The notes: generated from the letters alone by a model not told the origin. DNA of 64,000 nt from Candidatus Micrarchaeota archaeon (GCA_021827525.1 JAKAVJ010000013.1:9191-73190), one strand, 5' to 3'. Shown: positions 32,372-49,115, numbered from the stretch's first letter. Program-made: numbers and translations.

Positions 32372-34783
32372 TCACGTTAATATGTACGCATCGGGATTAT
32401 CGGCATCCAGCAGTTTTACCTGCCCTGCAGATATGTATATCCTTAGTTGTTCTGCCTCTGTGGAGAATGCCTTCGCCAGCGTATCCTTGAAGTTCATCAG
32501 TGCCTCAGAGTTAAGGAACGCCAGATACGTCTGCGCACCTGCGTACACGGGCAGATTTTTAAACTTGCTTGTGAGCGAATATATGACTACATAGACATGC
32601 TCACCGTTTATTGTAGCGGTCAGATCGGCTGATGTGCTTGCATCTATATCAGTGAATAAGAAGGCGTGAGTCACGAGCCACATCCTCAATTTCTTGAACG
32701 TTGCAAGGTACTGCATGTCGTGGCCGCTCTTGCTCAACCAGTCCTTAGGCGCGTAGAGTTCATCTAGACCGACAACATAGCCTGCGTTCATCAGTTGGTC
32801 GAGTATAACTTCAATATTGCTGTAGGTGAGCGAAACGGGTATGCCGTTGCTTCTTATGTTGTTGGCTATCGCTATCTTTATCTCATCCTTTGACAACGGC
32901 ATGTAGCGCCAGCGATAATACGCATTCAGCTTGTCGAAGGTGCTTACCACGTCGCGGGCCTTTAGCTTTATGTCCACGATGTTCTGCTTCGGCATTGCGG
33001 GTATGTCTATGTAGAATTCATCCCTGATTGGAGCCTTTACTACAGTAACGAGCAGGATCACCACTATAAGCACAACTATCAGGTCTATGTCCCTGCCGCT
33101 TATGGTTATCGATATCGGCTTGTTTGTCAAGGCGTATGTGAAGTTCTCAGACAGCATCTTTATGCTGAAGTTAAGTGTACCGAAGATCTCTGGCGTGCCC
33201 TTAGGCAACGTGTAGGTTATGGCGCCATTGCTTATCACGCCGCTCTGTGGATATTTACCGTTAAGCGTTATATTGTAGCTTACCCCGGATATAGGAAGCC
33301 CTGCGGACCTTATACCTAGTATGAACGAATTGCCAGAGAAGTTGGCAACAGGTGATGTTATGTTTATCGGCGGTACAGATATGTATGATGACGCGTAATC
33401 GGAGCCAGAAGCCCCTTGGAGCGAGACTACGTATTGTCCAGGTGGGAAGCTCACGTTTATCGTTTTTATGAACGTGAAGTTGCCAGAGGCAGAGACGAAC
33501 GGCACTACGACCGTCTGCACTTCTGCTCCCGTATTGTTGTAGACGGATATATGCGGCTCGATATAGACCTGCTTGGCTGAATGTGTGTATACTGTCATTG
33601 TAGTGGGTATTGTTTGCCCAGGTATTACGAAATCGGGCATAGCCATGCTGCCATTCAGCTGATATCGAGGCATATAGTTTAAGTAGTAGAATAGGCTATT
33701 GTTGCGTGCCATGAAGCTGCTGTTTTGGTACAGTATGATGCGGGCGAAGCTGCTGTTCAGCACGTTGGTTACGTTGCCTGATGCCAGTATGCCCGTATTG
33801 TTGAGCGCTAGTCCTATCAAGCCTCCTGAATTTGATATGCTCGCTACTCTTACACTTCCATATCCTGTAGCGTATTTGGGCACCCAGAAGTCCTCAGATA
33901 TCGCCTTGGCTATTCCTTCTGAAAGATTTTCCGGTGAGGCTGAATCGGGATAGTTTGAAAACGCGATTATAGAGCCGTTATAGTAATTCACATATGTGAG
34001 TCCGCCGTAAGTGTTACCTATAGCGAAGCTGAACGTAGTATTGTAGAAGAAGAAGTTCTCCATCGGTCTTGAATAGTACAGCTTTGCCAACGATGCATTG
34101 TATGCACGGGAATTTGTAGTCAGGTATGTCGGGAAATAGGAATTTGGCAGCACAATGGATCCAGAACCCACCACATCGCCAAAGTTCTTGCCTACGTATA
34201 TTATGCTCTCGCCTTTGTTAAGCAGGTGATCCAGCTGCGAATAATTCGACGTGTTGTTGATTGGTAATAGGAGCTGCTGAGGAAGCAGACCGCTGAGGAC
34301 TATCAGCACCGAATCATTCGGCATCGAGCTAATGCCGCTCAGCCCTACTGTGCTTATGCCTGACGGGCTGCTTATGATTCCGTACTTCTCCAAGTAGGCG
34401 GTAAGATCGCGCACTATTATGCTGTCGTTTGAGCAACTTATGCATTCGTTAGGAAGCGAAAGCAGGTATATGCCCGCAGGGGGGTGCTGCTTGTAAAGCG
34501 TTGCGTTTATGTAAACATAGGAAATGTTTTTAGTAGAATAGTCAAGCATGAAGTACGGAACCAGCGATGCACCGCTGTCGTAGTACAATAGATTGGACCC
34601 CGTGATGTATGCCGTGATATTGGGTATAAGAGTCACGACCTTTGTTGGAGGAGGCAAGGCGCGGAACAGGCTCGTAAGCTGCAGATATGCGTATAGGAAC
34701 ACCGCAGCTATGGCAATTACTATTACCAGTATTAGCAGTATTAGGAACTTTGATCTCTTGCCTTTCTGTCCCATATCAATCAA
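32372..34783 (-). CDS. Large bitopic envelope glycoprotein: N-terminal anchor, ~540-aa sequon-rich ectodomain, second TM, ~210-aa cytoplasmic domain
   Basis: TM1 FLILLILVIVIAIAAVFLYAY and TM2 IDLIVVLIVVILLVTVV. More than 25 N-x-S/T sequons in between. AAGGAGAG lies about 10 nt before the ATG. Last co-directional gene of the cluster. Confidence 0.6.
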   Translation of the reverse strand: MIDMGQKGKRSKFLILLILVIVIAIAAVFLYAYLQLTSLFRALPPPTKVVTLIPNITAYITGSNLLYYDSGASLVPYFMLDYSTKNISYVYINATLYKQHPPAGIYLLSLPNECISCSNDSIIVRDLTAYLEKYGIISSPSGISTVGLSGISSMPNDSVLIVLSGLLPQQLLLPINNTSNYSQLDHLLNKGESIIYVGKNFGDVVGSGSIVLPNSYFPTYLTTNSRAYNASLAKLYYSRPMENFFFYNTTFSFAIGNTYGGLTYVNYYNGSIIAFSNYPDSASPENLSEGIAKAISEDFWVPKYATGYGSVRVASISNSGGLIGLALNNTGILASGNVTNVLNSSFARIILYQNSSFMARNNSLFYYLNYMPRYQLNGSMAMPDFVIPGQTIPTTMTVYTHSAKQVYIEPHISVYNNTGAEVQTVVVPFVSASGNFTFIKTINVSFPPGQYVVSLQGASGSDYASSYISVPPINITSPVANFSGNSFILGIRSAGLPISGVSYNITLNGKYPQSGVISNGAITYTLPKGTPEIFGTLNFSIKMLSENFTYALTNKPISITISGRDIDLIVVLIVVILLVTVVKAPIRDEFYIDIPAMPKQNIVDIKLKARDVVSTFDKLNAYYRWRYMPLSKDEIKIAIANNIRSNGIPVSLTYSNIEVILDQLMNAGYVVGLDELYAPKDWLSKSGHDMQYLATFKKLRMWLVTHAFLFTDIDASTSADLTATINGEHVYVVIYSLTSKFKNLPVYAGAQTYLAFLNSEALMNFKDTLAKAFSTEAEQLRIYISAGQVKLLDADNPDAYILT

Positions 34784-34920
34784 CTCTCCTTAGGCTTCTT
34801 GACAAGGAGTTTCATGAACAGTTTCGTCAATGGGTTTGTGTTTTGGCCTATGCGCTTGACTATCGTATATACGCGTATGTACCTCACTCTCTTATTTATC
34901 CTGACAGAATATATCATCAG

Positions 34921-35652
34921 CTATCCCTTTACTTCTATATATCCCAACGAGACCATCTTGTTCAGTATCTGCTCCACGCGGGGCGGAACGACCTTGTAGT
35001 TCTTTGAGAACTCGTTTACGTCTATGGTGCTCTCATGCGACTCTATCCAGTCCTCTATCAGCGCCATGAGCGATTCGTCGGAATAGCTCTCCAATGCGTC
35101 TAGCCTGCGCTTCATGTCGTCGTTATCTGACTTGAGCTGCGCTGCAGATGCAGTAAGATTCTTGTTCGAATTGGTGAGCTCTATGTTGAGCCTCCTCAGC
35201 TCCCTGTGCTCAGTAAGCAGCGCTTCGTAATTGTTAAACAGCGCGCTGTAGTTTTGCGACAGCGAATTGATAACGTCGTCTATCGCTGAATCCAGGTATT
35301 GGAACAGCTCGGTCTGGTTTACCTCGTACTGGTCCGTTATCAGTGACAGTATGCTTATCAAATTCCTGAGGACGTAAAGCTTGCGCATCTTGCTGCTCGT
35401 GTCCTTTGGTATAGAGTACTGCACGGATACGCCGCTCTGCGACATAGTAATTATGAAGAACAGGAAGGGTCTTTTCTGTATGTCACGGCTCTCTATCCTG
35501 AATAGCACTAGGCTGTTCTGCATTACCGATATGTAAAATACCTGCAGCGAGGTCAGCCTCGTAGATATGGCTTCGAAGCTGCCCTTCAGGGTAGCGCTAA
35601 TCTGGAATGAATCAACATCTGGTTCAGTGATGCCTATATTTTCCTCAGTCAT
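34921..35652 (-). CDS. Soluble coiled-coil protein with C-terminal wHTH-like module (cluster-associated)
   Basis: Heptad-rich segment LTEHRELRRLNIELTNSNKNLTASAAQLKSDNDDMKRRLDALE. C-terminal VPPRVEQILNKMVSLGYIEVKG. Confidence 0.55.
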   Translation of the reverse strand: MTEENIGITEPDVDSFQISATLKGSFEAISTRLTSLQVFYISVMQNSLVLFRIESRDIQKRPFLFFIITMSQSGVSVQYSIPKDTSSKMRKLYVLRNLISILSLITDQYEVNQTELFQYLDSAIDDVINSLSQNYSALFNNYEALLTEHRELRRLNIELTNSNKNLTASAAQLKSDNDDMKRRLDALESYSDESLMALIEDWIESHESTIDVNEFSKNYKVVPPRVEQILNKMVSLGYIEVKG

Positions 35653-35696
35653 GGACTCACAACACTATCGTGTTTTAAATTATTAAAGCTGATGTA

Positions 35697-36107
35697 TCAT
35701 TTGCTAAGGCGCTTTGGCCTATCCTTCTCTGCTTTATGTTTCTGGATGCTCAGCGCAGGTATATAGCTTGCTAGTGACAGCGCATACATGAATACTATCA
35801 CTGCGAAGCCGTACAGCAGGGATATAGGATTGCCATGGGAGCTGAAGAAAAGAGCCAGCGTGAACAGCACACCTATTATTACGTAGGTTATCTGCTTGCG
35901 CACATACTTGTCGCGCTGCTTGCTGTATTTCAAGTAGCAGTCTTTGCATACTACTAGCCTGTAGTTGCGGTATTTATGGAATATTTTCCTATTGACCCAC
36001 CTTATCGCAGCAATCACATAATCCTCCTTTACGGGAAGACCTTCCTTCGCTTCGCCACATATTATGCACCTCGGCTCGGTTTTCTTGTCTTTGTTCGCCA
36101 TGTACAT
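35697..36107 (-). CDS. Zinc-ribbon membrane protein (cluster-associated)
   Basis: CIICGE...VCKDCY four-Cys ribbon followed by two TM helices. Its start overlaps the upstream stop by 1 nt. Confidence 0.55.
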   Translation of the reverse strand: MYMANKDKKTEPRCIICGEAKEGLPVKEDYVIAAIRWVNRKIFHKYRNYRLVVCKDCYLKYSKQRDKYVRKQITYVIIGVLFTLALFFSSHGNPISLLYGFAVIVFMYALSLASYIPALSIQKHKAEKDRPKRLSK

Positions 36108-36415
36108 CAGTCCAAGTCTATCGAGGCGTTATATACCCTCCCTGTCTCGGCGCTGCTCTTCTGCTCGTCAATCATCTCAATCGCTTGGCTTATTGTTATG
36201 TCATCCATTCCAATCCTCCTGAAGACGTTCTTCATCTTGTCACGCGTCAGGCCGCTCTTCTCTAGCATAGATGCGAAGGTTATGACATTTATGTGCCTGT
36301 GGGATTTCTCCATGGATGCGAGGAGCGCCGTTATGTTCTTCTCGCTGACACCAAAGGCTACAAGTATCCTCCTGAGCTCTATCCTGCCCACTATCAGCGT
36401 ATTTTTATCAGCCAT
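36107..36415 (-). CDS. Small soluble helical protein carrying the same short module as the ATPase C-terminal tail
   Basis: LEKSGLTRDKMKNVFRRIGMDDITISQAIEMI aligns by eye with the ATPase tail LEDAGMPTSEMVMFLKSMGIEDTMISRIMTYA. Overlaps the ATPase gene by 8 nt. Confidence 0.55.
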   Translation of the reverse strand: MADKNTLIVGRIELRRILVAFGVSEKNITALLASMEKSHRHINVITFASMLEKSGLTRDKMKNVFRRIGMDDITISQAIEMIDEQKSSAETGRVYNASIDLD

Positions 36416-37922
36416 TCTTACCAGCGTACGTCATTATTCTGCTTATCATCGTGTCTTCTATGCCCATGCTCTTGAGGAACATGACCATCTCTGAGGTTGG
36501 CATGCCTGCGTCCTCCAACGCTGACATAAGCTCAGACACCTTCATCGTCCTCTGCTGAGCGTCGAACTTTCCCATTATGCTGTCGATATTGTCCGAGCTG
36601 ACATTATAGTCTATGAGCTTGTTCCTGAGCTCATCCTTTTCGAACTGGTAGTTCCTCTGGACAACGTTGGCAGAGAGCTCAGCCCTAGTCAGCACGTCAG
36701 TAAGGTCTATAGTATATACATAAAGGGGCTCTTCGCCCTGTATCCTCTCCAGTATGAACGTCTCGGGGAACCTGAGCGATGTCTGGAACGCCATCTCTAC
36801 CGCAGCCTGCCCTACACCGAACTTCGTTATCTCGGACCGTATGAAATCGGAGAAGTTGAGGGAGCCCTGTATATAGTTTATGAACTTCTCGAACTTTATC
36901 CTCATTATAAAAGTAGTGCCGACGTTTGAGAATATTGCTTCATTTATGTCTGTCGGGTTCTGCGATGCCACTATTAGACCGAACTGGTACTTTCTTCCCT
37001 CCCTGACTATCATTATGGCGTCGCTCTTCTCATCGCTCGCGACTTTCCAGGCCTCATCTAGCACAACCATTGTCTTCAGCCCCTTGCTCTCACTCCATCC
37101 TTCGAAGCGCATGCGTTCCTTAAGCGTCTGCAGTATGAACAGCGCCGCAAGGGCCCTGAAGCGCTCATCCGGCAGGCCGGATAAATCTATGTCCACTAGA
37201 CCTGAGCCCGCAAGCTTTTCCAGGTCTATGGTGCTCTTCCTTGCAAAGTAGTCCTCGCCCTCCCGTGCGAATTGCCTAAGCCTGTATATGGTGTTCTCAA
37301 GCTCTGCAGGATACTCATACGTTCCATCCTGCAGCTTCTCCTCGAGAAGCGCTATCACATCCTTCAGCGTTGGCACCTCTATTCCAGGCAGCGGTGGCTC
37401 AGAAACGTTGAAGCCCTTATTGGTGTACGATTGTTCTATTGCCTCTTCTGTAAGCCTCTTCTGCTCTGGGAATTCGGATATGTCCGTGAGCAAATCTAGA
37501 GAGTTCATTATCTGCTTGGTCCTGTCTAGGGGCTTCATGCCTGATAGGTCAAGCAGGTTTATGAAATCGCCCCGGCCAAGCGAGACTATGGTGCCGCCGC
37601 TCTGTTTGACCCATGGCTTATATTCCGCGGCCCAGTCTATTATAACGGCACTGGTTCCCCAGACATAGTATGCACGAATGAGGAATGTCTTAATGAAGTA
37701 GCTTTTCCCTGAGCCGGTTATGCCCACTATAGCCATATGCGGATTCGTGAGGTTGGCGTAAGTCCATGCAAATGGTACATGAAACATCTTAGTAGTGCCT
37801 ATGTAGACGGTCTTCTGCGGATCGCCTACGAGAACTGATGATGGAGGCTCTGGGGGCCTTGATATGAACGCCCTCTTCGCTATCTCGTTGCTCATTATAT
37901 TCTGGAATCTTACCAATGTCAT
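36408..37922 (-). CDS. VirB4/TrbE/HerA-type (FtsK-HerA superfamily) secretion or translocation ATPase
   Basis: Walker A IVGITGSGKSYF, then IIDWAAEY and FINLLDL (VirB4-like 'iNPld' position), Walker B MVVLDEAWKV, and REGRKYQFGLIVASQNPTD. Confidence 0.8.
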   Translation of the reverse strand: MTLVRFQNIMSNEIAKRAFISRPPEPPSSVLVGDPQKTVYIGTTKMFHVPFAWTYANLTNPHMAIVGITGSGKSYFIKTFLIRAYYVWGTSAVIIDWAAEYKPWVKQSGGTIVSLGRGDFINLLDLSGMKPLDRTKQIMNSLDLLTDISEFPEQKRLTEEAIEQSYTNKGFNVSEPPLPGIEVPTLKDVIALLEEKLQDGTYEYPAELENTIYRLRQFAREGEDYFARKSTIDLEKLAGSGLVDIDLSGLPDERFRALAALFILQTLKERMRFEGWSESKGLKTMVVLDEAWKVASDEKSDAIMIVREGRKYQFGLIVASQNPTDINEAIFSNVGTTFIMRIKFEKFINYIQGSLNFSDFIRSEITKFGVGQAAVEMAFQTSLRFPETFILERIQGEEPLYVYTIDLTDVLTRAELSANVVQRNYQFEKDELRNKLIDYNVSSDNIDSIMGKFDAQQRTMKVSELMSALEDAGMPTSEMVMFLKSMGIEDTMISRIMTYAGKNG

Positions 37923-37926
37923 AACA

Positions 37927-38760
37927 TCATCCCTGCATGTCGAAGTTAGAGGCTATCTCGTTATACTGGGTAGGCAGCGAGAAATTGAAATTGAATATCG
38001 AATATAGCTCCCTGCCCACTATCTTTATTATCTGGATATCCAACGAGCTCAGCGCAACCTGCAGACGCGCTTCCTGCGCAGCAAGGTTGTCCAGGGCAGA
38101 TTTCTCAGTAACACCCACACCGACCGTCTCTATGTACATTATCGTCGATATAGGCTTCTCGCCCTGAGCTATCCTGTCCATCTGCGTCTGTATTATGCTC
38201 TGCTTCCTCTGAAGCTCTTCCATTGCGGTATCTGTCTGCTTGCCGCTTTGCGCAAGGCGCGCCATTTGGAACTCTATGTATCCTCTCTTGCCCTCGAGCG
38301 CATCGCGGGCCTTCTGCACGTCCCTGCCGCAGGAGAGCACGTGGAACTTGAAAGGAAAGTCTATGCCGCTAACCGCTCTCTCCCACCTGTCCGGCGCCTC
38401 TGCTATCCTTGAATCGACGTCTTCTTCTGGGTTCTCAGCCTTGAACGTGTACGCGAACAGGTTGGCCGTGAGGTAACCTATAGCGTAGTGTATTCCGCCT
38501 ACACTCTTCACTATTGCATCCTGCGACTTCACTATCTTATAATCCTTCATCGGCTGGAAAGTTATGCCCAGCATCCTTGATACTGCAGGAAATACGATGA
38601 AGTCTATCCAGTTGAGCATGAGTATAAGAACGACTGCTATCAGCAGTATTATTACGGCTATGATCCTGTATATCCCTGGACCGAAGTGAGGCAGGAAAGA
38701 GAAGGTTATCAGCACTATAACCAAGCTGAACGTAAGATATATTATCCCGGTAGAATCCAT
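37927..38760 (-). CDS. Bitopic membrane protein (2 N-terminal TM plus ~200-aa cytoplasmic domain), paralogue A; VirB3/VirB4-N-terminal-domain-like by architecture
   Basis: 277 aa. Same length and layout as the adjacent gene. 4 nt upstream of the ATPase gene. Confidence 0.6.
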   Translation of the reverse strand: MDSTGIIYLTFSLVIVLITFSFLPHFGPGIYRIIAVIILLIAVVLILMLNWIDFIVFPAVSRMLGITFQPMKDYKIVKSQDAIVKSVGGIHYAIGYLTANLFAYTFKAENPEEDVDSRIAEAPDRWERAVSGIDFPFKFHVLSCGRDVQKARDALEGKRGYIEFQMARLAQSGKQTDTAMEELQRKQSIIQTQMDRIAQGEKPISTIMYIETVGVGVTEKSALDNLAAQEARLQVALSSLDIQIIKIVGRELYSIFNFNFSLPTQYNEIASNFDMQG

Positions 38761-39593
38761 TATATCACTTCCTCCTCTATGTTCTTGTTTATCTGCGCGC
38801 TTATAGTTGTCACGGGTATCATGTGCTCAGGCTCAACGAACTTCAGTATCTCCTCGCCGGTCACTATTGTGGGTGTCACGCCGAATGTGGTGCTCACCCC
38901 TGATATCACATCGCGGGCCTTCTGCTGCACAGCGCTCACAGCCTCGTACTCCTTGGTGCCTGTAGCTGATATGCTGGCATACGTGACTAGCTCTAGGGAT
39001 GTGCCCTTGCTTATAGTATCCAGCATGTTCCTCCACATGGCTATCTTGCCCTTCGCGCGCTCTATCTCGACCGCTGGCGCACTCCTCTGGCTGAGCTCCT
39101 CTGCTGCGTTCTCCGCAGCGTTGACATTGTCCCGTATCGTCTGCAGATATGCATCCTTATCCATCACGTACATCTGCGTAGAGTATCTTACCGGATCCTT
39201 GCTTATGCCAACCAGCCTGCTGACCTGATTGGCAAACTCAAGCTTTTCCTCTGGCTGCATCTCAGTTGCAGATCGGTATATTGGTATGGTCACATATACC
39301 GTAGCTATGAATGTGTCCTTGACTTTGCGTATTATCGAATCTGCAGAAGCGGAGAGCCAGTATGTGTTCTCTTTGTCGAGCATTATGTGCTTGCTCCTCT
39401 GCTTTACCATAGGTATTATTAGATATGAATAGTACCTTGATGCGAAAGCCAGGACTACGAAAAACATCGCGACCATAAGCAGAACAAGCTTGGCAAAATA
39501 TGGGAATATTGCGAGAGGCAGCTCTATTGCAGCTGCAAGCACTATTATTGAGGCGAATAGTAACCCTAGAAATATGAATATCTTATTGTCCAT
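38760..39593 (-). CDS. Bitopic membrane protein, paralogue B of 37927..38760
   Basis: 277 aa. Two N-terminal TM helices, then a soluble domain with the same order of segments (beta-rich, then a helical coiled region). 1-nt overlap with paralogue A. Confidence 0.6.
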   Translation of the reverse strand: MDNKIFIFLGLLFASIIVLAAAIELPLAIFPYFAKLVLLMVAMFFVVLAFASRYYSYLIIPMVKQRSKHIMLDKENTYWLSASADSIIRKVKDTFIATVYVTIPIYRSATEMQPEEKLEFANQVSRLVGISKDPVRYSTQMYVMDKDAYLQTIRDNVNAAENAAEELSQRSAPAVEIERAKGKIAMWRNMLDTISKGTSLELVTYASISATGTKEYEAVSAVQQKARDVISGVSTTFGVTPTIVTGEEILKFVEPEHMIPVTTISAQINKNIEEEVI

Positions 39594-41315: not shown

Positions 41316-42416
41316 TTACACCAAGTTACCAATAAGGGCCATGAAGCTGACCTTCTCGCCCATCACCTTTGAAAAGTCCACTATGAATGCGTCTAATATG
41401 GTGAAATTCAGGAAGGGCACGAAAGTGAGGCCCGCTATCACATACCCGTATTGCAGCAGGAGAGTCCCCAGATATGATGGGAAGCTTCCGGATATATATG
41501 TGGCGAACAGTCCTGCTACCAGGCCCGTAGCGCCTGATGCTAAGTTGTATATTCCCGCCAATGCGCCTGAGATTGTAGATGGGTTGCCCAATGAAACTAG
41601 CGTCTGCGTAGTTATGAAGCCATAGGTTACCGAGACCAAAAGGGGGAACACTATTCCGAGGCCCAAGCCGAAAGCTATCATTGCGCCGCCAAAGCTCCTT
41701 GATATGCCGAAGACCCATGCTATCAGACCTATTGCCATGAAAAGGGCTATGAAGAATATTGATCCGGATAGCAGTATCAATTGAACCTCGTTGAGCAGTA
41801 TCATAAACAGCAGCGCATTGAACGCAATGCCTAGAATTTCGTCCATAGATTTCGGGAATAGGCTATTGATGCCAAATGAGAAGCCGGTTCCGTCTGAATC
41901 GAATGGGACATTGACCTTGACGGAGAACCCGGGCGTGAGACCGGCAACGTATGATACGCCGTACAGCAGGCTGAAGTAGCCCTTCGATATCGCTATGAAG
42001 CTGCCCATGTCGCAAGCGGATAGGTTGAATATTGTATCGCTCGCAGCTCCTGTGCATGTGCTCGGAAGCAGATGTGCGCTGCTTACGGACTGGCTCGGAC
42101 TTAAGAACATCATCGAATATAACCCGAGAAATATCACAATCAGCATTATCCCTATGAGTGCCTCGTATATCTGGGCGCGCGCCCAGCTCCTGCCATTAGG
42201 GCTGTCCAAGGCGAAGCTGACTGCATAAATCAGTGCCGCAATCAGTATAACCACAATGACTGCAATCAGAGCTATGTCATACCACGGAGGTATGAAGCTG
42301 GTGACGAATGACTGAGGCGCGGAGGATGCCGCAGAAGCGGTGTGCAGCAGCATCACGGCTAGCATAGCAATCGCGACCGAGACCCGTATTGCACTTCTTG
42401 AAACCATGCCAATCAT
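41316..42416 (-). CDS. Polytopic membrane protein, tandem paralogue 5 of 6
   Basis: Signal peptide. AQIYEALIGIMLIVIF and the degenerate core motif LIAWVFGISRSFGGAMIAFGLGLGIVFP. Confidence 0.7.
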   Translation of the reverse strand: MIGMVSRSAIRVSVAIAMLAVMLLHTASAASSAPQSFVTSFIPPWYDIALIAVIVVILIAALIYAVSFALDSPNGRSWARAQIYEALIGIMLIVIFLGLYSMMFLSPSQSVSSAHLLPSTCTGAASDTIFNLSACDMGSFIAISKGYFSLLYGVSYVAGLTPGFSVKVNVPFDSDGTGFSFGINSLFPKSMDEILGIAFNALLFMILLNEVQLILLSGSIFFIALFMAIGLIAWVFGISRSFGGAMIAFGLGLGIVFPLLVSVTYGFITTQTLVSLGNPSTISGALAGIYNLASGATGLVAGLFATYISGSFPSYLGTLLLQYGYVIAGLTFVPFLNFTILDAFIVDFSKVMGEKVSFMALIGNLV

Positions 42417-42431: not shown

Positions 42432-43508
42432 TCACAGCACCCTCTTCAGCGTATTGCTTGAAGACAGGCTCGGCGCTCCGAGCGCGTCGCCTATCAGCTC
42501 CATGAAGTCGTACGAGACTATAAGCGATATTATGAGCACGAATATTGTAAATATCATCGGCTCGACTATGACATTTATAAATGGCGTGATTATATCGAAT
42601 GATATCATTTGAAGTACCGTGGTGAGGAAAGTACCTGTTGATTGTATGAAACTGCTTGGGCTGCTCAGGAACGAATTTGTATTTATTACAGGCAAAACCG
42701 ATGAGGTGGGCGATGCCTGCAGCATGAAGTACAGCAGGGTAGGGAACATGAGGTAGAACGCGATGAAAAGGCCCAGGAAGGCTCCGCCTGCTGCCCTTGT
42801 CCACGGAATCGTACGCAGTATTATTCCCAAGAACAGGAATATCGGGAATACTGAATAGATTATGGCTAGGAAAACTATGAGTGCTATGAAGAGCCCTGCA
42901 AGGCCCCCGGCAATGCCTATGAATAGGTTAAGTATGTGGTACAGAAGGCCGAAGGCCTTAAATGGTACGAAGCTTATGCCGAAATACAGCGGCATTATGT
43001 TCACCCTAAAATCACGCAGAAGCTGGAGGTAGTATGTCTCTGGTATGAAGTAAGTGGAGAGCGACCTGAATACGTCGACCGACGAGCCCGCAAGGAGCGT
43101 GCAGTCGTTGTAATACGTGTTGTATGTGCTTGACGGGCCTATCTTTATGAAACCTGATGGAGATATGGAGTATATTGCGCCGAAAAATATTAGGACTACA
43201 AGCAACGTCACGACTATCTCGCCCATCTCTGCCTTCGAGAACTGCACAAGCTTCTCGACCTTGAATGAATAGCCTATCATATACGTTATGCCTATCACCA
43301 GCGCCACAAGAGCCAGTATGAGCATGGATATGCCGAGCATGCCGCCATAAGAACTCGAATGAAGCACCGCATTGGACTGCACTATTGCGCTGTTGCAGAA
43401 TGCGGAGTTGGTCGCATCCCCTGTGCTAGCAGCAGAGACGTTGCCCAGAAGCAGCAGCAAGGCTAGAACCAGCGCCGCACCCTTTGCATATGCGTATGCC
43501 CTTCTCAT
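42432..43508 (-). CDS. Polytopic membrane protein, tandem paralogue 4 of 6
   Basis: Signal peptide. KAEMGEIVVTLLVVLIF and IILRTIPWTRAAGGAFLGLFIAFYLMFP. Confidence 0.7.
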   Translation of the reverse strand: MRRAYAYAKGAALVLALLLLLGNVSAASTGDATNSAFCNSAIVQSNAVLHSSSYGGMLGISMLILALVALVIGITYMIGYSFKVEKLVQFSKAEMGEIVVTLLVVLIFFGAIYSISPSGFIKIGPSSTYNTYYNDCTLLAGSSVDVFRSLSTYFIPETYYLQLLRDFRVNIMPLYFGISFVPFKAFGLLYHILNLFIGIAGGLAGLFIALIVFLAIIYSVFPIFLFLGIILRTIPWTRAAGGAFLGLFIAFYLMFPTLLYFMLQASPTSSVLPVINTNSFLSSPSSFIQSTGTFLTTVLQMISFDIITPFINVIVEPMIFTIFVLIISLIVSYDFMELIGDALGAPSLSSSNTLKRVL

Positions 43509-43515: not shown

Positions 43516-44967
43516 CTATACGAACCTCGAAAGGCCTGCGAGGTTGGTATCGCCTCCGAGCAGGCCGGACAGGCCGATTATTGCAGTCAGTGTTATCAAT
43601 ATGTTCACAAGTGGCAGGACGTATGCGGTTATGCCCGTTATGCCGTATGCATTCAGCACCTGGAACATGGTGCCCTCCGCATTCGTTGGAGTGCATGCAG
43701 AAGGCAGATAGAAGTATGGCAGTGAGCTTGGCAGGCCTCCCGAAGCACCCTTTATTAGGGGCAGCAGGCCTTCTACAGCGGATGCAAAAGGAACCAGCAG
43801 TATGCCGGTATCCTCTGCCTGGGTCAGGGCCAGGTTGCCGCCGGGGGGCCAGCAGTTGTTTGCCTGCGCTATCTTCTTTATGCTTGGCTCCACGAAGAAA
43901 TTAGGGGTATAGTCGGGCAAGGCGGTAATGGAATTTGTAGTTATGCCGTTGAAGCCGTAGGCAGTGCTAAGCGTAATGCCCGTGGAGCCGATCTCGCTGT
44001 TCACGTTCATGCTGCTCAGCGATACATACTCAATTGCGAATACTGCTGGATAGAACAGCACCGCCCCTATGGCAACGGCTATGAAAAGCCCGCCTATCCT
44101 CCTAGTGAAGGGCGTCGCCCTGAATATCAGCCCTATGAACAGGATGTACGGCCATATGTACAGGAATATGATTATGAACAGGAGCTGGGCGACATCCATT
44201 TCAAGCGATGTGCCTAGAAGCTCGCCTATAACGCCCATGGGCTTGTACACCATTGAGTACCCTGCATAGGGTGTGTATGTAGCATTTATGAATGAGATGG
44301 CAGGATTTACGTCTTCTTCTGGAGGTATTATGCATGGCCCGGCGGGATTTATAAAGTCCTGCAGGCAGAATGACAGCGAGGGCGTGAGCGTCTCCATGTA
44401 GCCTAAGAAGAAGTCGACTTCGAAGAACGAATTAAGGTTTACTATGCTCTGGTTCGTAAGGTTTGCGATCACGACCCCTGCGGAAGCCAGCGGGTAGTCT
44501 ATGTTAGTCGTGGCGGTAGGATTGCTGGACTGCGTCGATATGTAGTTGCACAGCCCTCCGAAAGACGGGCCCGAAGAGCTAGAGAATCCTTTGAGCAGCG
44601 AAAACGAGCTTATACCGAAAGAGGGCGGTCCGAGTATGGAGAGCGGTGAATATGATTCTATTCCGCTGCACATGCTTGACATGCTCGATGTTGACATTGC
44701 GCCGCCGCTCGAAATTAGGGAGAATATATTGCCCGCAAACACCAGTATGGTGAGCACTATGACCGTTATGACAGCGGTGCCGGCAAGCTGGTAGAACTCG
44801 CCTCTTGCTGAATCCTTCACCTTCGTGCTGTTAAGCAGTATGCCCAGCACGTACCATACGCTCACTATCACCGAATCGAGGAGCAGCGCAAGCACGACTA
44901 TTGGCAGAAGGTCGGACTTCACAGTAGATATGGATGTTATCTGCAATAATATTCCAGGCGCTATCAT
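43516..44967 (-). CDS. Polytopic membrane protein, tandem paralogue 3 of 6
   Basis: RGEFYQLAGTAVITVIV and LIFRATPFTRRIGGLFIAVAIGAVLFYP. Large central ectodomain. Confidence 0.7.
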   Translation of the reverse strand: MIAPGILLQITSISTVKSDLLPIVVLALLLDSVIVSVWYVLGILLNSTKVKDSARGEFYQLAGTAVITVIVLTILVFAGNIFSLISSGGAMSTSSMSSMCSGIESYSPLSILGPPSFGISSFSLLKGFSSSSGPSFGGLCNYISTQSSNPTATTNIDYPLASAGVVIANLTNQSIVNLNSFFEVDFFLGYMETLTPSLSFCLQDFINPAGPCIIPPEEDVNPAISFINATYTPYAGYSMVYKPMGVIGELLGTSLEMDVAQLLFIIIFLYIWPYILFIGLIFRATPFTRRIGGLFIAVAIGAVLFYPAVFAIEYVSLSSMNVNSEIGSTGITLSTAYGFNGITTNSITALPDYTPNFFVEPSIKKIAQANNCWPPGGNLALTQAEDTGILLVPFASAVEGLLPLIKGASGGLPSSLPYFYLPSACTPTNAEGTMFQVLNAYGITGITAYVLPLVNILITLTAIIGLSGLLGGDTNLAGLSRFV

Positions 44968-44972
44968 TCAAA

Positions 44973-46613
44973 TCACAGATTGTTCCAGAACGACGCAGCA
45001 CCCTCTATTCCAGTATTCAATGCCTTTGTGAGGCTCATGGCGAACGCCACTGTTATGGCTATATTCAATGCAAATAATATAACACCTATGAATATGAACT
45101 GCGACATCAGGTTCACGATAGAGTTAGATATTGTTATAGGCGTATACGGATTGTATACGCCGGAAAGCCCAAGGCTGCTCACGCCTGAGATGAGGCTAAG
45201 CTCTGACGGCGCGGCTATGCCGAATGGAAGCGTCGAAGGCGAGCTGCTTGATGCGCTCGAGAAGAATGTTGATGGCAGCTGTGTCAATGTGAATCCCATG
45301 TTCAGGTACGGATAAAGGGGGTTCTGAACAGAGAATATCCAATGCACCATGTACGCATCGAGCGCTATGGTCAGCGGATATATCAGGTAGAGCGCTATCG
45401 CTAACGCCAAAACGGCGTTGGCTACGTTGCGCAGCCCTGACCCGCCCGCGCCGGTATATGCTATTGACCTTATTATTATGGCCACGGGAAGCAATAATGT
45501 GAATGCGGTAAGCTTTATGAGCGGCAGCGCTAGGTACTGCAGGAATAACATGCCTATGGTTATCACCAGTATCGGCGAGAACAGATCCATGTACAGATCA
45601 GCAATGAGATAATAGCCTATGCTTAGGTCGTACCCCTCCAGAACGTTCATAGATACGCCTGGCGCTATGGTAATCGTCGGTATTTCGAGCTTCCCCGACA
45701 GTTGCGCTGCCATATATGAGTATACTCTTGCATCTATGCTGAACGCTATCGAATCGGAATATATATTCGTGAGAAGCCTCAAGCCTGTGTTCATGCTAAG
45801 GTTGCCGATGTAGTAGTCTGAATACGTAAATGGACCGAGCGATGTGCCTGTAAGCTGCTGGCTTATTGACGAAGATATGCCGCATGCTGCGCTCGAGAAG
45901 AATATGAGCAGCGTTATTATGAGTGCGCTTATCAGGAGCTGCGTCATCTCAATCTTGGTTATGCCGGCGATGGTGCTCTTGGTCCTTGGGGGCATGATCC
46001 TGCCAATGGCATACAGAACTGCCATTACCATGAAGCCGATTATTATCACAAGGTAGTTTATTGGAAGCCAGTCGTTGGTGTAGTCTGAATTTCCGTACAG
46101 GGTGCACGCCTGTATGGGCTGCGATGGCGGCGGAGCCGTGACGGTTATGGCAGAAGCTGAGTTTGTAGATGAGGATGCGCTGTTTGAAGCGCTGTTGGAG
46201 GCGCCGGTGGAGGCGCTGTTGGAAGCAGAATTGGAGGCTGAGTTGGTGGGTGCACCGGGGGTCAGCACGGTCAACACTTGACCACTGCTGTATGTATTTG
46301 TCGATATATCGTAAGCATAAAAGTATTTGTAGGTGCCAGCTTGAAGGCTGCCCGCAGGATATGTATAGGTAGCCGTGCCGAATCCGAAAGCCAGTTCCTG
46401 GTTTTCGGTGGGGTACCTTATTTCGCACAGACGATTGAGTATAGTCTTACCCGGGCATTGGGCTGTTATTGTAACTGTGGATGTTGTGCTTGCTGGATTG
46501 GGGCTTATAGTAAGTGTAGGCGATGCTGCTTTGGCGACTGCCGATGAATGCACTAGCATTATTATCAGTATGAGTGCGTAAATGGGAAACATCCTTGTTT
46601 TTGCGCTTTTCAT
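44973..46613 (-). CDS. Polytopic membrane protein, tandem paralogue 2 of 6, with Ig-like ectodomain and Ser-rich linker
   Basis: Signal peptide; beta-rich N-terminal domain; NSASNSASNSASTGASNSAS linker; KIEMTQLLISALIITLL and IIIRSIAYTGAGGSG...LALAIALYLIYP. Confidence 0.7.
   Translation of the reverse strand: MKSAKTRMFPIYALILIIMLVHSSAVAKAASPTLTISPNPASTTSTVTITAQCPGKTILNRLCEIRYPTENQELAFGFGTATYTYPAGSLQAGTYKYFYAYDISTNTYSSGQVLTVLTPGAPTNSASNSASNSASTGASNSASNSASSSTNSASAITVTAPPPSQPIQACTLYGNSDYTNDWLPINYLVIIIGFMVMAVLYAIGRIMPPRTKSTIAGITKIEMTQLLISALIITLLIFFSSAACGISSSISQQLTGTSLGPFTYSDYYIGNLSMNTGLRLLTNIYSDSIAFSIDARVYSYMAAQLSGKLEIPTITIAPGVSMNVLEGYDLSIGYYLIADLYMDLFSPILVITIGMLFLQYLALPLIKLTAFTLLLPVAIIIRSIAYTGAGGSGLRNVANAVLALAIALYLIYPLTIALDAYMVHWIFSVQNPLYPYLNMGFTLTQLPSTFFSSASSSSPSTLPFGIAAPSELSLISGVSSLGLSGVYNPYTPITISNSIVNLMSQFIFIGVILFALNIAITVAFAMSLTKALNTGIEGAASFWNNL
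46149..46250. repeat. Low-complexity imperfect short repeats encoding (N/T/G)SAS linker
   Basis: Degenerate reiteration of GCGCTGTTGGAGGC-like units on the plus strand, in frame within 44973..46613. Confidence 0.7.
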
Positions 46614-46624
46614 CTAATCGCTCT

Positions 46625-47863
46625 TCATGCAAGTTTCATCCTTCCTATTCCAAGCCTCAGAGAGCCCCCTAGCAGCGACGCTATGTGCTGGACTATGACT
46701 ATGCCTATTATCAGGTCCAGTATGAAAAGTATGAACTGCAGTATCGCCACCAGGAAAGCCTGCGACAGTATTATGTTGAATGCCGGATATATGTCTGCAT
46801 AGCTAGCCATGCCGTATCCGAATCCTGTAAATATCTGGCTATTCGCGTTAGAAGCGTATAGCATGGTGTTGATAACGCTTATCGCCCCGCTGTAGAAGGC
46901 GCATTCTATTGGGTTCCATCCACTAGGGCAGGAATTTGACAGAGTAGGTATGGTTGTGGGCGGGATATAGCTGCTTATTGGAACGTTGATGGCAAGCAGA
47001 AGCGCAGGGTATACTAGCGACGCGCCTATGCCGAGCGCCAAGAAAGTGCCGCCGAGAGGCCTTAGTATTGGAATGGCTCTGAGCACTATCCCTACAGGCA
47101 AGAGGACGCCGAACCCTATTGCTATGATGGACGCCAAAAGGTCTTGCTGCACCTGCAATATTATCGTAACAGGGACTAGGATGACCTTTCCTATATCTGT
47201 AAGCAGAGAGAGGCCAGGGTCCGATATGGAGGATATTACGCTGCTCACATAGAGGTTCTCATCGACACCGAAATCGAGCGATCCTATTGTAAACACCGGC
47301 ACTATAGGGATGGGTATGTATAATGACAGCGTCATACTCTTCCATACGCCTATGCCGTCATATAGGCCGAGTAAATTGTAGAATGCGGTATCTACGTTCT
47401 GCAGCTCCGGGGTAAAGTAGGATGTTTGAAGCGCGGTGTAGACCATGCCTATGTTACTGGTTATTTCGCTGCTTGCTGTGCTGCTGCTAGTTGTCAACGA
47501 TGAGCTCGGCGCGCCGACATAGCTCGCAGCTATGCTGCTTAGCACTATGAACAGCGAAAATATCAAGACTATTATCAGTATGGACTTCACAGCCTCCCTG
47601 AGCTCGTTCTGGTACCATCCTTTCAGCGCGCTTATGTTGAAAACGCTGCCGAGCATGTATGATATAGCAACAAGCAGGAACGAGAACAGAACACCGAATA
47701 ATGCCAATGGTATCGCCGACACTACGCAGTTGCCAAGCGTGGTGTCCGAGCCGGTGACCAGGCAGTATGGAGTTGTCTGAAAGCTAGGGCTCGCGTACAC
47801 AGGCTTTGCTGCGAATGCTAGCAGCAATACGGCAAAAAGCATTACTTTGCTCCCGTGGCGCAT
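46625..47863 (-). CDS. Polytopic membrane protein, tandem paralogue 1 of 6
   Basis: Signal peptide. QNELREAVKSILIIVLIF and IVLRAIPILRPLGGTFLALGIGASLVYP. Confidence 0.7.
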   Translation of the reverse strand: MRHGSKVMLFAVLLLAFAAKPVYASPSFQTTPYCLVTGSDTTLGNCVVSAIPLALFGVLFSFLLVAISYMLGSVFNISALKGWYQNELREAVKSILIIVLIFSLFIVLSSIAASYVGAPSSSLTTSSSTASSEITSNIGMVYTALQTSYFTPELQNVDTAFYNLLGLYDGIGVWKSMTLSLYIPIPIVPVFTIGSLDFGVDENLYVSSVISSISDPGLSLLTDIGKVILVPVTIILQVQQDLLASIIAIGFGVLLPVGIVLRAIPILRPLGGTFLALGIGASLVYPALLLAINVPISSYIPPTTIPTLSNSCPSGWNPIECAFYSGAISVINTMLYASNANSQIFTGFGYGMASYADIYPAFNIILSQAFLVAILQFILFILDLIIGIVIVQHIASLLGGSLRLGIGRMKLA

Positions 47864-47929
47864 AGAATAATATAGGGACTAATATTTATAATCCATACTA
47901 TGTATGCATCGAGAGCGGCGAAGCGCACC

Positions 47930-48661
47930 TCACCTCTTCAGCAGCGCAAACCTCTTCATGTACATCTCGCTCTGCAGCACTACGAGAAACGGCAGTATGA
48001 ACAATGAGTTGAACACGACCATTATATAGCGTGACAGAAGAGTCCCTGTCGCCGCTATGAATATGAAATCAAACAGCGTTATCAGCACTATAGCTATAGC
48101 AAGCCATAGCAGGAAATAGTCGAAGCGCTTTATGATGAATCTCAGGCTTGCCATCATTGCCCTGCCTACGGGCTTCTCGTCTATGACTATGGAGCTGGGC
48201 GCATAGAAGAAGAAAGGAGCGAGTATCAGCGCAGCCGCATATGTGAACAGGCCTGAATGCCCTATTGAGAAAGACGCCATGTTGATCAGGTACAATATTA
48301 CAGCGTAGGCTATGAGCACTGCGAATGTGCTGCCTGTATATCTCTCCAGCCCGTCCATTATCTCCTTGCGTATCCTCGTGTGTATCCTGCCGTATTTCAC
48401 AAGTATGTTTATCGCTACGATAGCAAAGCTCAGGAAAAGCAGCGAGAAGAACACCGATGCCACTATTATCGACGCGCTGATTGCGTTGAGGTTGACGAAT
48501 ATGCTTGCAGTCCTTATGAATATCGCGCCGGCATCATTGTATGTTGGGAGCGGCGCGAGGCCAGGTATTATAAAAGCTATGAGGAATGATATCGAGAAAA
48601 GCAGTATCAGACGAAGGTGCTTCGCATAGAAGTCAAACGAATAGCTTAGCACGTTCACCAT
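47930..48661 (-). CDS. Six-TM integral membrane protein (cluster-associated, no recognised family)
   Basis: 243 aa, evenly spaced hydrophobic helices, basic C-terminus. Confidence 0.6.
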   Translation of the reverse strand: MVNVLSYSFDFYAKHLRLILLFSISFLIAFIIPGLAPLPTYNDAGAIFIRTASIFVNLNAISASIIVASVFFSLLFLSFAIVAINILVKYGRIHTRIRKEIMDGLERYTGSTFAVLIAYAVILYLINMASFSIGHSGLFTYAAALILAPFFFYAPSSIVIDEKPVGRAMMASLRFIIKRFDYFLLWLAIAIVLITLFDFIFIAATGTLLSRYIMVVFNSLFILPFLVVLQSEMYMKRFALLKR

Positions 48662-48698
48662 TTAATCACAAGAAGGATTAGGAAGGAAATATTAAAAG

Positions 48699-48722
48699 GG
48701 TTAATGGAAAAACCCATTAACC
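48699..48722 (-). terminator. 9-bp perfect stem-loop 3 nt after the stop of the pilin-like gene (possible attenuator or partial terminator)
   Basis: GGTTAATGG-AAAAAC-CCATTAACC. On the minus strand it is followed by CTTTTAATATTT. Confidence 0.45.
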
Positions 48723-48725
48723 TAT

Positions 48726-49115
48726 TTAGGAGCAGGCTGCGGTTATGCTGGCCACGGAAGCCGAGCTTCCCATTATCAGGCCGAGCAGGAACGGCGCTAT
48801 CTCTGCTATTATCACGCCTATGACCCCTCCCAGGATCATGCCCATGCCGTATCCCTGAAGCGTCGACTTGCTCTGGCCGGGCATAATGTGCGAAGCTGCA
48901 TAGAGCGCCGCGCCGCCTATCATCAGTGCAAGTCCCAGTATGAATATTGCCGTGTGCACTACGGTGTATATTATGCATATCTGCGAAGTCACAGTGCTTA
49001 CTATGCTGTTCCCTGCCGCTGACATCGTCGCTATGAAGCTAAGCATCAGAAGAGGCAGCATCAGCACCTTAATGTTACGGCTTAACCAATCCAAAAGACC
49101 GAATATTTTTGGCAT
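48726..49115 (-). CDS. Small two-helix membrane protein with long leader; VirB2/TrbC/CedA1-like pilin candidate
   Basis: 129 aa. Leader ending ...SFIATMSAAG, then helix ICIIYTVVHTAIFILGLALMIGGAALYAA, polar loop SHIMPGQSKSTLQGYG, and helix MGMILGGVIGVIIAEIAPFLLGLIMG. First gene of the cluster. Confidence 0.6.
   Translation of the reverse strand: MPKIFGLLDWLSRNIKVLMLPLLMLSFIATMSAAGNSIVSTVTSQICIIYTVVHTAIFILGLALMIGGAALYAASHIMPGQSKSTLQGYGMGMILGGVIGVIIAEIAPFLLGLIMGSSASVASITAACS

Follow-up and report, generated by a model that had tools for sequence, protein, structure and literature searches.

The 64,000-nucleotide stretch of DNA analysed here (hereafter, the window), from a Candidatus Micrarchaeota archaeon (GCA_021827525.1, JAKAVJ010000013.1:9191-73190), carries a cluster of 15 co-directional genes on its minus strand, from position 49115 down to 32372. 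The cluster is real, strongly conserved and previously unannotated. On balance, we favor reading it as a vertically inherited, chromosomally fixed, relaxase-less derivative of a type IV secretion system (T4SS), of the Ced/Ted class and specific to Micrarchaeota.

We re-derived the 15 open reading frames (ORFs), named g1 to g15 in gene order, from a six-frame ORF list and its translations. They encode proteins of 129, 243, 412, 546, 483, 358, 366, 552, 277, 277, 504, 102, 136, 243, and 803 aa; all cluster coordinates given below are on the minus strand. Spacing among the first 13 genes ranges from -8 nt (g11/g12) to 66 nt (g2/g3), and the next gaps are 44 nt and then 137 nt. The GC content (0.46-0.51) equals that of the flanks, and hydropathy gave membrane character to g1-g10, g13, and g15. 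An earlier sequence-only reading of this stretch had reported the same genes, coordinates, lengths, and spacing, and a composition like that of the surrounding genome; all were reproduced. It had listed g14 and g15 as further genes: they are co-directional, as stated, and synteny and distant lineages place both within the conserved unit. The 137-nt space between them exists as well –although not as an empty one– since it holds a conserved, very basic 45-aa ORF, g14b (34780..34917; MIYSVRINKRVRYIRVYTIVKRIG..., MIYSVRINKRVRYIRVYTIVKRIGQNTNPLTKLFMKLLVKKPKES). Its counterpart is called as a 48-50-aa gene in three other loci (L026, L028, and L030), with sequences that align by eye. Counting g14b, this is a 16-gene chromosomal operon.

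Upstream of g1 (49116..49225), an A/T-rich TATA-like stretch, TTTTTATTATTATCTATATATAA, lies ~25-45 nt before the start codon and reads by eye as a putative archaeal promoter. In the g1-g2 spacer (48662..48725), a T-run comes after an inverted repeat (GGTTAATGG / CCATTAACC); the two, also read by eye, are a possible attenuator. With a TATA-like element before g1 and a hairpin with T-run after it, an excess of g1 (pilin) transcript would therefore result.

Judging by sequence relatives, the host is a Micrarchaeota metagenome-assembled genome (MAG), and thus a DPANN archaeon, as the sequence-only reading had guessed. An archaeal RNase P RNA (7020-7255, minus strand; Rfam RF00373, 88.6 bits) and tRNAs in the window indicate archaeal DNA. 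Close relatives of g11 number more than 1100, and the organism-named ones are nearly all Micrarchaeota, Micrarchaeia or (mislabeled) Marsarchaeota. The public record (M1603_01645-01710) labels this MAG as 'Candidatus Marsarchaeota', yet the relatives are all Micrarchaeota. In the NCBI annotation (locus tags M1603_016xx-017xx), the cluster products are named 'hypothetical protein' or 'ATP-binding protein', and the g10-g6 region has one surplus locus tag, so that an extra or split gene was called there.

For the synteny survey, one genome per GTDB species was scanned with the ATPase. It returned 25 loci, a single one per genome; one lies in a Mancarchaeum MAG and another in the complete genome of Ca. 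Micrarchaeum sp. A_DKE, which is in culture. The order g2..g15 was identical in all loci long enough to show it, a recurrence that is far beyond chance; the possibility raised by the sequence-only reading that the gene set might not be conserved in any other genome is thus set aside. ATPase identity was 65-97% across the 25 genomes (65-79% in the remotest). The six polytopic paralogues (g3-g8) and the two 277-aa proteins (g9, g10) each had their own positional 1:1 orthologue, with 28-58% identity in the remotest genomes. Therefore, the duplications are older than the radiation of the group that carries the expanded cluster.

The ATPase, g11 (36408..37922, 504 aa), belongs to the FtsK/HerA superfamily and is of CedB/CedD/VirB4 type. 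It has no N-terminal domain of its own (~55 residues precede Walker A) and ends in a helical domain of ~80 aa. The VirB4/TrbE/HerA-type P-loop motifs pointed out by the sequence-only reading (GITGSGKS, VVLDEAW, and REGRKY..ASQ) are all present in the translation. Pfam matches above cut-offs were DUF87 (HerA central domain, 3e-15), AAA_10 (6e-13), and TraG P-loop (5e-11). In NCBIfam, the ranking was CedD (1.3e-19), CedB (1.4e-17), VirB4_plasma (the VirB4 of mycoplasma integrative conjugative elements, 3e-17), CD1110 VirB4-like (1e-16), TraC (3e-15), and HerA (2e-13). The CedD and CedB scores were 63-70 bits, against equivalog cut-offs of 600-700, and with VirB4-type models only the C-terminal half aligned. 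Sequence searches of the PDB gave the HerA central domain 8wiv (1e-10, residues 243-386) and the VirB4 C-terminal domain 4ag5 (2e-9), the latter covering the longest stretch of g11 (57-326).

Searched exhaustively, a set of 1.8 billion representative proteins yielded full-length g11 relatives of ~500 aa down to 37% identity. Among plasmid records matching g11, 2204 of 2538 were conjugative; the commonest annotations among the 30 matches listed were F-type TraC and unnamed ATP-binding/DUF87 proteins. Large intein-like insertions interrupt two g11 orthologues from other metagenomes: in P0203 (1026 aa) the insertion sits exactly in Walker B, and in P0204 (1196 aa) it sits in Walker A. Intein insertions are typical of highly conserved, important ATPases. 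The next gene, g12 (36107..36415, 102 aa), described earlier simply as a helical protein, is in addition a free-standing paralogue of the ATPase C-terminal helical domain: its hidden Markov model (HMM) matches g11 residues 422-499 (E 5e-12; hhalign 96.8%).

The part of VirB4 that g11 lacks may be encoded just upstream. Both g9 (38760..39593) and g10 (37927..38760), of 277 aa each, read as a transmembrane (TM) hairpin followed by a VirB4/CedB-N-terminal-like domain. The sequence-only reading had called them bitopic paralogues. The paralogy stands, if weakly (BLASTP 3e-4), and the single TM helix does not: the AlphaFold2 (AF2) model of g10 (108 sequences, pLDDT 82.9, pTM 0.68) has two TM helices and then an alpha/beta domain. 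The same layout exists fused to the motor in ATPase relatives of 870-913 aa (P0240, P0242, P0248, P0255, and P0266), where the ATPase comes after two TM helices and a domain of ~230 aa. The g9/g10 family HMM matches the N-terminal region of fused relatives (P0255 8.5e-10, residues 1-248; P0251 2e-8; P0283 3e-4; P0240 8e-4). These relatives match NCBIfam CedB at 7e-42 to 1e-26 in alignments that begin at residue 69-128, so they span the N-terminal domain. The five fused relatives named above also carry a C-terminal winged helix and a restriction-endonuclease-like domain.

Family members of g9/g10 have no P-loop. VirB4_plasma was matched by six of them (best 2e-5) and CedB by five (best 1e-3), and these two specifically T4SS-related families head their NCBIfam ranking; Pfam gave no matches for 48 members. 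With Foldseek against the PDB, the top hits of the g10 model were chains of the R388 inner-membrane complex (8rtb_A and 8rtd_O/T/g; prob 0.94, 0.94, 0.94, and 0.82), at marginal E-values of 0.06-0.15. We read these chains as TrwK/VirB4 from their length, 747-808 residues vs. 823 aa for TrwK in the R388 record. In the Ced system, parts of the VirB4 N-terminal domain have structural homologues in the N-terminal domains of CedB and CedD, two paralogues that are both required (PMC11868833). These individually weak but convergent signals, from profiles and a model, suggest that g9 and g10 are a split-off, membrane-anchored VirB4/CedB N-terminal domain. A VirB4 ATPase with N- and C-terminal domains is thus represented only by a remote, split homologue, with the C-terminal part in g11 and the N-terminal part in g9/g10. 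We conclude that g9, g10, and g11 make up a three-polypeptide, membrane-anchored motor of VirB4/CedB type: the single statistics are modest, and independent lines agree.

At the other end of the cluster, g1 (48726..49115, 129 aa) is a candidate for a pilin of VirB2/TedC-like kind. Its leader resembles a signal peptide, a K/R loop separates its two hydrophobic helices, and conserved Cys residues lie before helix 1 and at the extreme C-terminus. An alignment of 14 family members from diverse loci repeats this layout: an A-x-A/Q-like leader end, a Cys before helix 1, a helix 1 ending in '(L/V)YA.G', a short K/R loop, a second hydrophobic helix and, in most members, a Cys in the last few residues. 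The Cys pair of most copies suggests an N-to-C disulfide. Some VirB2/TrbC pilins undergo head-to-tail cyclisation, of which such a bond would be reminiscent. The alignment matched R388 TrwL by hhalign (prob 75.7%, E 2.4e-5) across helix 1, loop, and helix 2. The three tandem g1-like genes of locus L048 (g1-HMM E 1e-10 to 6e-17) matched NCBIfam T4SS_pilin_TrwL in the same region, at E 1.2e-5, 0.08, and 0.48. Other members weakly matched conjugative small-TM families (TIGR03745, pLS20_p028, and Mbov_0395). From this sequence profile, g1 is a candidate two-helix pilin of VirB2 type, and pilus formation is putative.

The window has one g1 copy, and other genomes have one to three in tandem ahead of g2. 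Two or three copies were seen in L026 (3834-4704), L028 (2024-2886), L048 (6220-7512), and L098 (224-1279); one of those in L026 looks frameshifted.

Between the pilin candidate and the motor lie g2 and the six polytopic paralogues. The 6-TM membrane protein g2 (47930..48661, 243 aa) was found only in genomes with the expanded cluster and had no Pfam match; its only match was a weak one to the NCBIfam BPSS1780 family (3.8e-4). The paralogues are g3 (46625..47863, 412 aa), g4 (44973..46613, 546 aa), g5 (43516..44967, 483 aa), g6 (42432..43508, 358 aa), g7 (41316..42416, 366 aa), and g8 (39655..41313, 552 aa), and g3 has 1:1 orthologues in all long loci. That these six are tandem paralogues, as first proposed from the sequence, agrees with all-vs-all BLASTP (E 1e-8 to 1e-3). 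Two of them carry extra domains: in g4, the membrane core is preceded by an extracellular domain at the N-terminus and a low-complexity linker rich in Ser/Asn; in g8, the N-terminal ectodomain is Cys-rich and the low-complexity linker is long and of (G/A/S/N) type. The Ser/Asn/Gly/Ala tracts that join these ectodomains to the core are long (ASNSASNS..., NGASSSSNGAS...). Orthologues of g8 range from 351 to 566 aa; with orthologue length varying by ~200 aa, the tracts are likely variable stalks, possibly O-glycosylated.

Several signals connect g3-g8 to VirB6/CedA, all of them weak and of a kind that TM composition can inflate. When 95 family members were scanned against NCBIfam, CedA (matched by three, best 5.3e-6) and TrwL (matched by three) led the list, level with an unrelated thylakoid-protein family (three members). 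By elimination, the CedA matches fall in polytopic orthologues (three of about 75) and not in g1-like proteins. None of the six window proteins matched NCBIfam Ced_CedA or a Pfam TrbL/VirB6 family, and the 81 g6 orthologues had neither an annotation nor a Pfam domain. In the AF2 model of g6 (pLDDT 78.7, pTM 0.71), very long helices are bundled together. Out of 350,000 chains, Foldseek placed five from the stalk complex of R388 (TrwJ/VirB5-TrwI/VirB6) among the top 50 hits of this model; 7o3v_G was the best of them, with prob 0.69 and TM-scores of 0.34/0.42, below statistical significance. From their 260-272 residues, most of these chains are probably TrwI/VirB6, although the output assigns no subunits.

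A likeness between pilin and channel candidates was also seen. The g1 profile aligned with the first 80 residues of g6 family proteins (hhalign, 82.6%), the first TM region of g4 resembles g1 (BLASTP 0.003), and g7 residues 44-101 weakly matched the pilin-like conjugal transfer family Mbov_0395 (0.0096). A pilin-like N-terminus of the channel protein was likewise reported by Beltran et al. for CedA1/CedA and VirB2/VirB6 (PMC9905601). Overall, homology of g3-g8 to VirB6/CedA is probable, not demonstrated.

Downstream of the motor, g13 (35697..36107, 136 aa) combines an N-terminal CxxC...CxxC zinc ribbon with two TM helices and has weak TIGR04104 and DUF983 matches. Next, g14 (34921..35652, 243 aa) consists of an N-terminal domain, a coiled coil (ZapB-like, 4e-5), and a C-terminal winged helix of CdvB type (EAP30 winged helix 0.011; profile residues 198-241 match the CdvB structure 2xvc at 0.017). 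In one source, g14 orthologues go under the name 'cell division protein ZapB'. Both genes are conserved in distant lineages.

The last gene, g15 (32372..34774, about 800 aa), probably starts at ATG 34774 rather than at TTG 34783. It encodes an N-terminal TM helix, a ~515-aa ectodomain, a second TM helix, and a conserved cytoplasmic domain of ~210 aa. All 26 of its N-X-S/T sequons lie in residues 41-555 and none in 591-803 (ectodomain density 5.0 per 100 aa vs. a background of 0.79), in line with the sequon-rich glycoprotein first proposed. This distribution puts the large domain outside and the conserved C-terminal domain in the cytoplasm. Orthologues occur in all genomes, distant ones included, and neither Pfam nor the PDB gave a match for g15. 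It is not the known S-layer protein Micr_00292, which is a different protein, and no HMM signal related the g15 C-terminus to the C-terminal wHTH/nuclease-like part of the fused ATPases.

When metagenomes were scanned with distant ATPases as seeds, three kinds of loci came back. Eight (L049, L054, L056, L064, L071, L077, L079, and L094) had the full expanded cluster. Reduced loci were also found: L081 and L101 have a pilin-like gene, one polytopic gene, one g9/10-like gene, and the ATPase, which is the minimal Ced/Ted-like order, and L039 has one polytopic and one g10-like gene before the ATPase, with no recognized pilin gene. The remaining six (L034, L037, L040, L048, L050, and L051) carry the module g10-g11-(g12)-g13-g14-g15, with pilin genes nearby. 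Because distant lineages carry these parts, the core of the system is the pilin, the channel, the anchored motor, and the g13/g14/g15 set. Since distant lineages are minimal, the six- and two-fold expansions and the fusion into a single operon are derived in the acidophilic Micrarchaeaceae-type group.

The cluster sits among housekeeping genes (topoisomerase VI subunit B, aminoacyl-tRNA synthetase, carbamoyltransferase, and glycosyltransferases), and the same neighbors recur in other genomes. Topoisomerase VI subunit B is convergent with g15, in the window and elsewhere, and that side also has a DUF2079 protein, a GT2 glycosyltransferase, and a class II aminoacyl-tRNA synthetase. On the g1 side lie a carbamoyltransferase, a PMT_2-like protein, and a highly polytopic protein of 638 aa (49226-51142, plus strand), divergent from g1 and with no Pfam match. 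This neighborhood may belong with the cluster as a glycosylation module. In L030, the carbamoyltransferase and PMT_2-like neighbors are conserved; in L028, a different polytopic gene of ~657 aa lies between the pilin genes and g2.

Farther away, window positions 8000-12500 have a GC content of 0.39-0.41 (vs. ~0.49 around), adjoin a tRNA-Glu (12460-12536), and contain two large ORFs (8130-9776 and 10273-12426), the second with Ig-like repeats (titin and SYG-2 matches, 3e-5). Possibly, this stretch is a surface or adhesin island gained by horizontal transfer.

Pfam and NCBIfam scans of the cluster and of the flank genes examined in the window found no integrase, relaxase, VirD4 coupling protein, PilB/FlaI ATPase or PilC/FlaJ platform; the cluster itself also had no class III signal peptide pilin or prepilin peptidase. 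The sequence-only reading had listed these absences, apart from that of class III signal peptide pilins. A FlaK/PulO peptidase (Micr_00634) is encoded elsewhere in the A_DKE genome. The same scans of the cluster gave no matches to VirB8, VirB11 or core/outer-membrane families, components that archaeal systems are expected to be without (PMC11868833).

Taken together, the parts proposed by the sequence-only reading –VirB2-like, VirB6-like, and VirB4-like– gain support from the NCBIfam ranking of g11, the HMM and Foldseek results for g9/g10, the g1-TrwL alignment, and the weak CedA/VirB6 signals. That reading could name a family for the ATPase only and argued from architecture for the rest. All non-ATPase links do stay below curated family thresholds, and profile and fold signals have now been added to architecture. 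These signals point to VirB4, VirB2, and VirB6, where the same reading had allowed for no resemblance to VirB2/VirB6-type folds. The six-fold expansion of a membrane component that it called unusual is there, with precedents in Rickettsiales VirB6 and in the Sulfolobales pairs CedA/CedE and CedB/CedD.

Several points weigh against a T4SS derivative of the Ced/Ted class. Besides the sub-threshold links just mentioned, 14 of the 15 cluster proteins have no Pfam family match, with g11 as the sole exception, and VirB8, VirB11, VirD4, and relaxase are missing from the cluster. In the PDB, neither g1 alone nor the family profiles of g9/g10, g14, and g15 found anything of use, the matches being coiled-coil or noise. 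By hhalign, the g10 family was negative against the single R388 TrwK/VirB4 sequence and the g6 family against the single TrwI/VirB6 sequence, and the scores that were obtained can be inflated by TM-helix or signal-peptide likeness. The best Foldseek match of g10 to VirB4 is marginal (E 0.06, TMq 0.34; aligned VirB4 part not reported), and that of g6 to VirB6 is not statistically significant (E > 0.3, TM-scores 0.34-0.42). Moreover, DNA as the most likely substrate is an argument from analogy, and conservation this high would be more in keeping with a function essential to the lifestyle than with occasional DNA repair.

This last point leads to a serious alternative, a role in host interaction or uptake, given the extreme conservation and the DPANN lifestyle. 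The same T4SS-derived machine would then be a symbiont-side device, an adhesive pilus or docking port on a Thermoplasmatales host for the exchange of protein, lipid or metabolites, with no DNA import. We regard this as rather improbable. It would account for an ATPase that is 65-97% identical in 25 species genomes and whose orthologues bear inteins in Walker A and B, typical of indispensable genes, and for the large sequon-rich surface protein g15 and the g4/g8 ectodomains. Structures that such a device could form have been described with no genes assigned to them: pili-like connections between ARMAN and Thermoplasmatales (PMC5864196) and, in the micrarchaeon ARM-1, a 21-nm docking complex of barrel-like shape that sits in the envelope (PMC11329633). 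The relaxase-less chromosomal T4SS of Patescibacteria is a precedent (PMC12102498). However, the only characterized archaeal relatives, Ced and Ted, move DNA, no effector-like genes are visible in the cluster, and the cytoplasmic accessory winged helix and Zn ribbon could handle nucleic acid.

Quite unlikely, in our judgment, is an envelope machine functionally unrelated to T4SS that recruited a HerA/FtsK-type ATPase, for S-layer or glycoprotein assembly or anchoring, membrane remodeling or division. The glycosylation-related neighbors (PMT_2-like, GT2, and carbamoyltransferase), the ZapB-like coiled coil and CdvB-type winged helix of g14, and the many cluster proteins with no recognizable family would suit it, and the S-layer anchoring of A_DKE is explicitly unexplained in the literature. 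Yet independent weak signals converge on VirB2/TrwL, CedA/VirB6, and the VirB4/CedB N-terminal domain, and the minimal gene order of distant lineages is the Ced/Ted order.

The transfer module of an integrated conjugative element, or a plasmid remnant, is very improbable. Components of T4SS type generally derive from such elements, and the closest plasmid matches of the ATPase are on conjugative plasmids, but there is no integrase, relaxase, VirD4 or flanking tRNA/att structure in the cluster and examined flanks. In addition, the GC content does not depart from that of the flanks, the single locus per genome keeps the same housekeeping neighborhood across genera, and 2.9 million viral and mobile genetic element contigs contained no relatives of the ATPase or of the fused family. 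Least credible of all is a HerA-NurA DNA repair or antiphage HerA system: DUF87 is the best Pfam match and PDB HerA chains match at 1e-10 to 1e-9, but HerA models rank under the Ced and VirB4 models, g11 has only ~55 residues before Walker A where HerA has a HAS-barrel N-terminus, 12 membrane proteins surround it, the N-terminal domain split off from it resembles that of VirB4/CedB and is anchored in the membrane, and no NurA, Mre11/Rad50, Sir2 or DUF4297 partner gene was found with the cluster.

We therefore return to the relaxase-less T4SS derivative of the Ced/Ted class. Gene content, conservation, homology signals, and membrane topology are direct results; for assembly, stoichiometry, substrate, and direction, we infer the following. 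The g1 product would be inserted in the membrane, lose its leader, and be extracted into a pilus or a short conduit across the S-layer. The membrane channel or pilus base would be built from g3-g8, probably as a hetero-oligomer, with g4 and g8 contributing extracellular extensions; as a speculation, the six distinct subunits might be matched 1:1 to a hexameric motor. Beneath the channel, g9 and g10 would dock this soluble hexameric motor, g11, as the VirB4/CedB C-terminal ATPase.

The remaining g12, g13, g14, g14b, and g15 would be lineage-specific accessory parts. Those from g12 to g14b would lie on the cytoplasmic side and take part in substrate handling, where the Zn ribbon and winged helix may point to the binding of nucleic acid or of a partner, and g15 and the ectodomains of g4 and g8 would serve surface contact or adhesion outside. 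During cell-cell contact, the g11 motor would drive assembly of the pilus or channel and move a macromolecule across, most likely DNA from neighboring cells or hosts if the analogy with Ced and Ted holds. By that analogy, the cluster is a concrete candidate for exchange of DNA or other macromolecules with neighbors or hosts.

A more specific proposal is tentative and, to us, possible but doubtful: that the operon is the symbiont-side conduit of Micrarchaeota, forming the pili-like links to Thermoplasmatales and/or the 21-nm docking barrel. Here, the six VirB6-like paralogues would form a hetero-oligomeric ring and the split VirB4 motor would have three parts, for the uptake of host DNA, nucleotides or macromolecules that the cell cannot make.

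The cluster bears on how DPANN archaea physically draw material from their hosts. Cryo-electron tomography of these archaea has shown filaments, nanotubes, and docking complexes with no assigned genes (PMC11329633, PMC5864196). In the searchable Micrarchaeota and DPANN literature on VirB4, CedB, T4SS, secretion, and pili, we found no account of this cluster, which does not prove that none exists. The giant SPEARE proteins of nanohaloarchaea are reported to contain VirB4-like domains. With the cluster, candidates can be named and tested in two genera open to cultivation: Ca. Micrarchaeum, represented by A_DKE, and Mancarchaeum, represented by a MAG.

Compared with Ced of Sulfolobales, the cluster would likewise be a chromosomal, relaxase-less T4SS derivative, with a candidate pilin of two helices, polytopic proteins that are probably VirB6-like, and an ATPase of VirB4/HerA-like type, putatively membrane-associated. 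NCBIfam matches it best to CedD, CedB, and, through orthologues, CedA, and in both systems the pilin (here the candidate g1) resembles the N-terminus of the channel protein. The paralogue pairs CedA/CedE and CedB/CedD are needed together (PMC11868833). Ced imports DNA, is induced by DNA damage such as UV, and relies on Ups pili; its two-helix pilins CedA1 and CedA2 make a lipid-bound pilus. Differences are considerable. The Ced scores are those of remote relatives (63-70 bits vs. 600-700), and, where an ATPase of CedB/CedD type joins a TM segment, a VirB4-like N-terminal domain, and a HerA/VirB4-like ATPase domain, the Micrarchaeota ATPase is split into a soluble motor and two membrane-anchored N-terminal-domain proteins. 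Ced has one or two channel paralogues, whereas the Micrarchaeota cluster has six. Unlike CedA1, g1 has a leader that looks cleavable, a comparison in which g1 was aligned with TrwL and CedA1 was taken from its description. Six further conserved genes (g2, g12, g13, g14, g14b, and g15) are extra, all genes lie in one operon, and the host is a DPANN symbiont and not a crenarchaeon.

Ted of Thermoproteales (TedC, TedA, and TedB), compared by description only, has the same three core parts. The TedC signal peptide is cleaved by signal peptidase I (PMC9905601), and the g1 leader looks like it. In contrast, TedB is a full-length VirB4-like protein, Ted shows no paralogue expansion and no g13-g15-like genes, and Ted loci carry ParA/VirC1-, Rad50-, and HerA-like genes that the Micrarchaeota cluster does not have. 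The cluster would thus be Ced/Ted-like in its working yet belongs to neither family, with scores an order of magnitude below the equivalog cut-offs, a split motor, and an expanded channel. The class of 'domesticated conjugation machines' would thereby extend from Thermoproteota to DPANN.

The Trw system of R388 (TrwL/VirB2, TrwM/VirB3, TrwK/VirB4, and TrwI/VirB6) shares with the cluster a g10 fold that best matches inner-membrane-complex chains of VirB4 length, a g1 family that aligns with TrwL, and a g6 model that weakly resembles VirB5/VirB6 stalk chains. The TM hairpin before the VirB4 N-terminal domain in g9/g10 mimics VirB3-VirB4 fusions, and the cluster would provide a VirB4 motor naturally split over three polypeptides. 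It differs from Trw in having no VirB1, 5, 7, 8, 9, 10, 11, VirD4 or relaxase, no detectable similarity to the single TrwK and TrwI sequences, and an archaeal monoderm envelope with S-layer.

Tandem VirB6 paralogues are reported in Rickettsiales (PMC2653234, PMC7648143). The Rvh T4SS shares with the cluster a VirB6-like component expanded several-fold with some paralogues extended, obligate host association, and a reduced genome. It differs as a bacterial diderm system with a full VirB scaffold, VirD4, and effector secretion, and the expansion arose independently. The six-fold, anciently fixed expansion described here would be useful for the question of T4SS channel stoichiometry.

Finally, Patescibacteria (candidate phyla radiation, CPR) are the ecological counterpart of DPANN. 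They are ultra-small episymbionts with a near-universal chromosomal, relaxase-less T4SS and VirB2-like pilins (PMC12102498), features shared with the system proposed here. Their T4SS differs in being bacterial, of the MPF-FATA VirB4 clade, with a full-length VirB4 and other accessory genes. The parallel suggests convergent use of conjugation-derived machines by episymbionts and, if the tentative proposal of a symbiont-side conduit is true, the Micrarchaeota operon would be an archaeal, independently evolved counterpart of the Patescibacteria T4SS.

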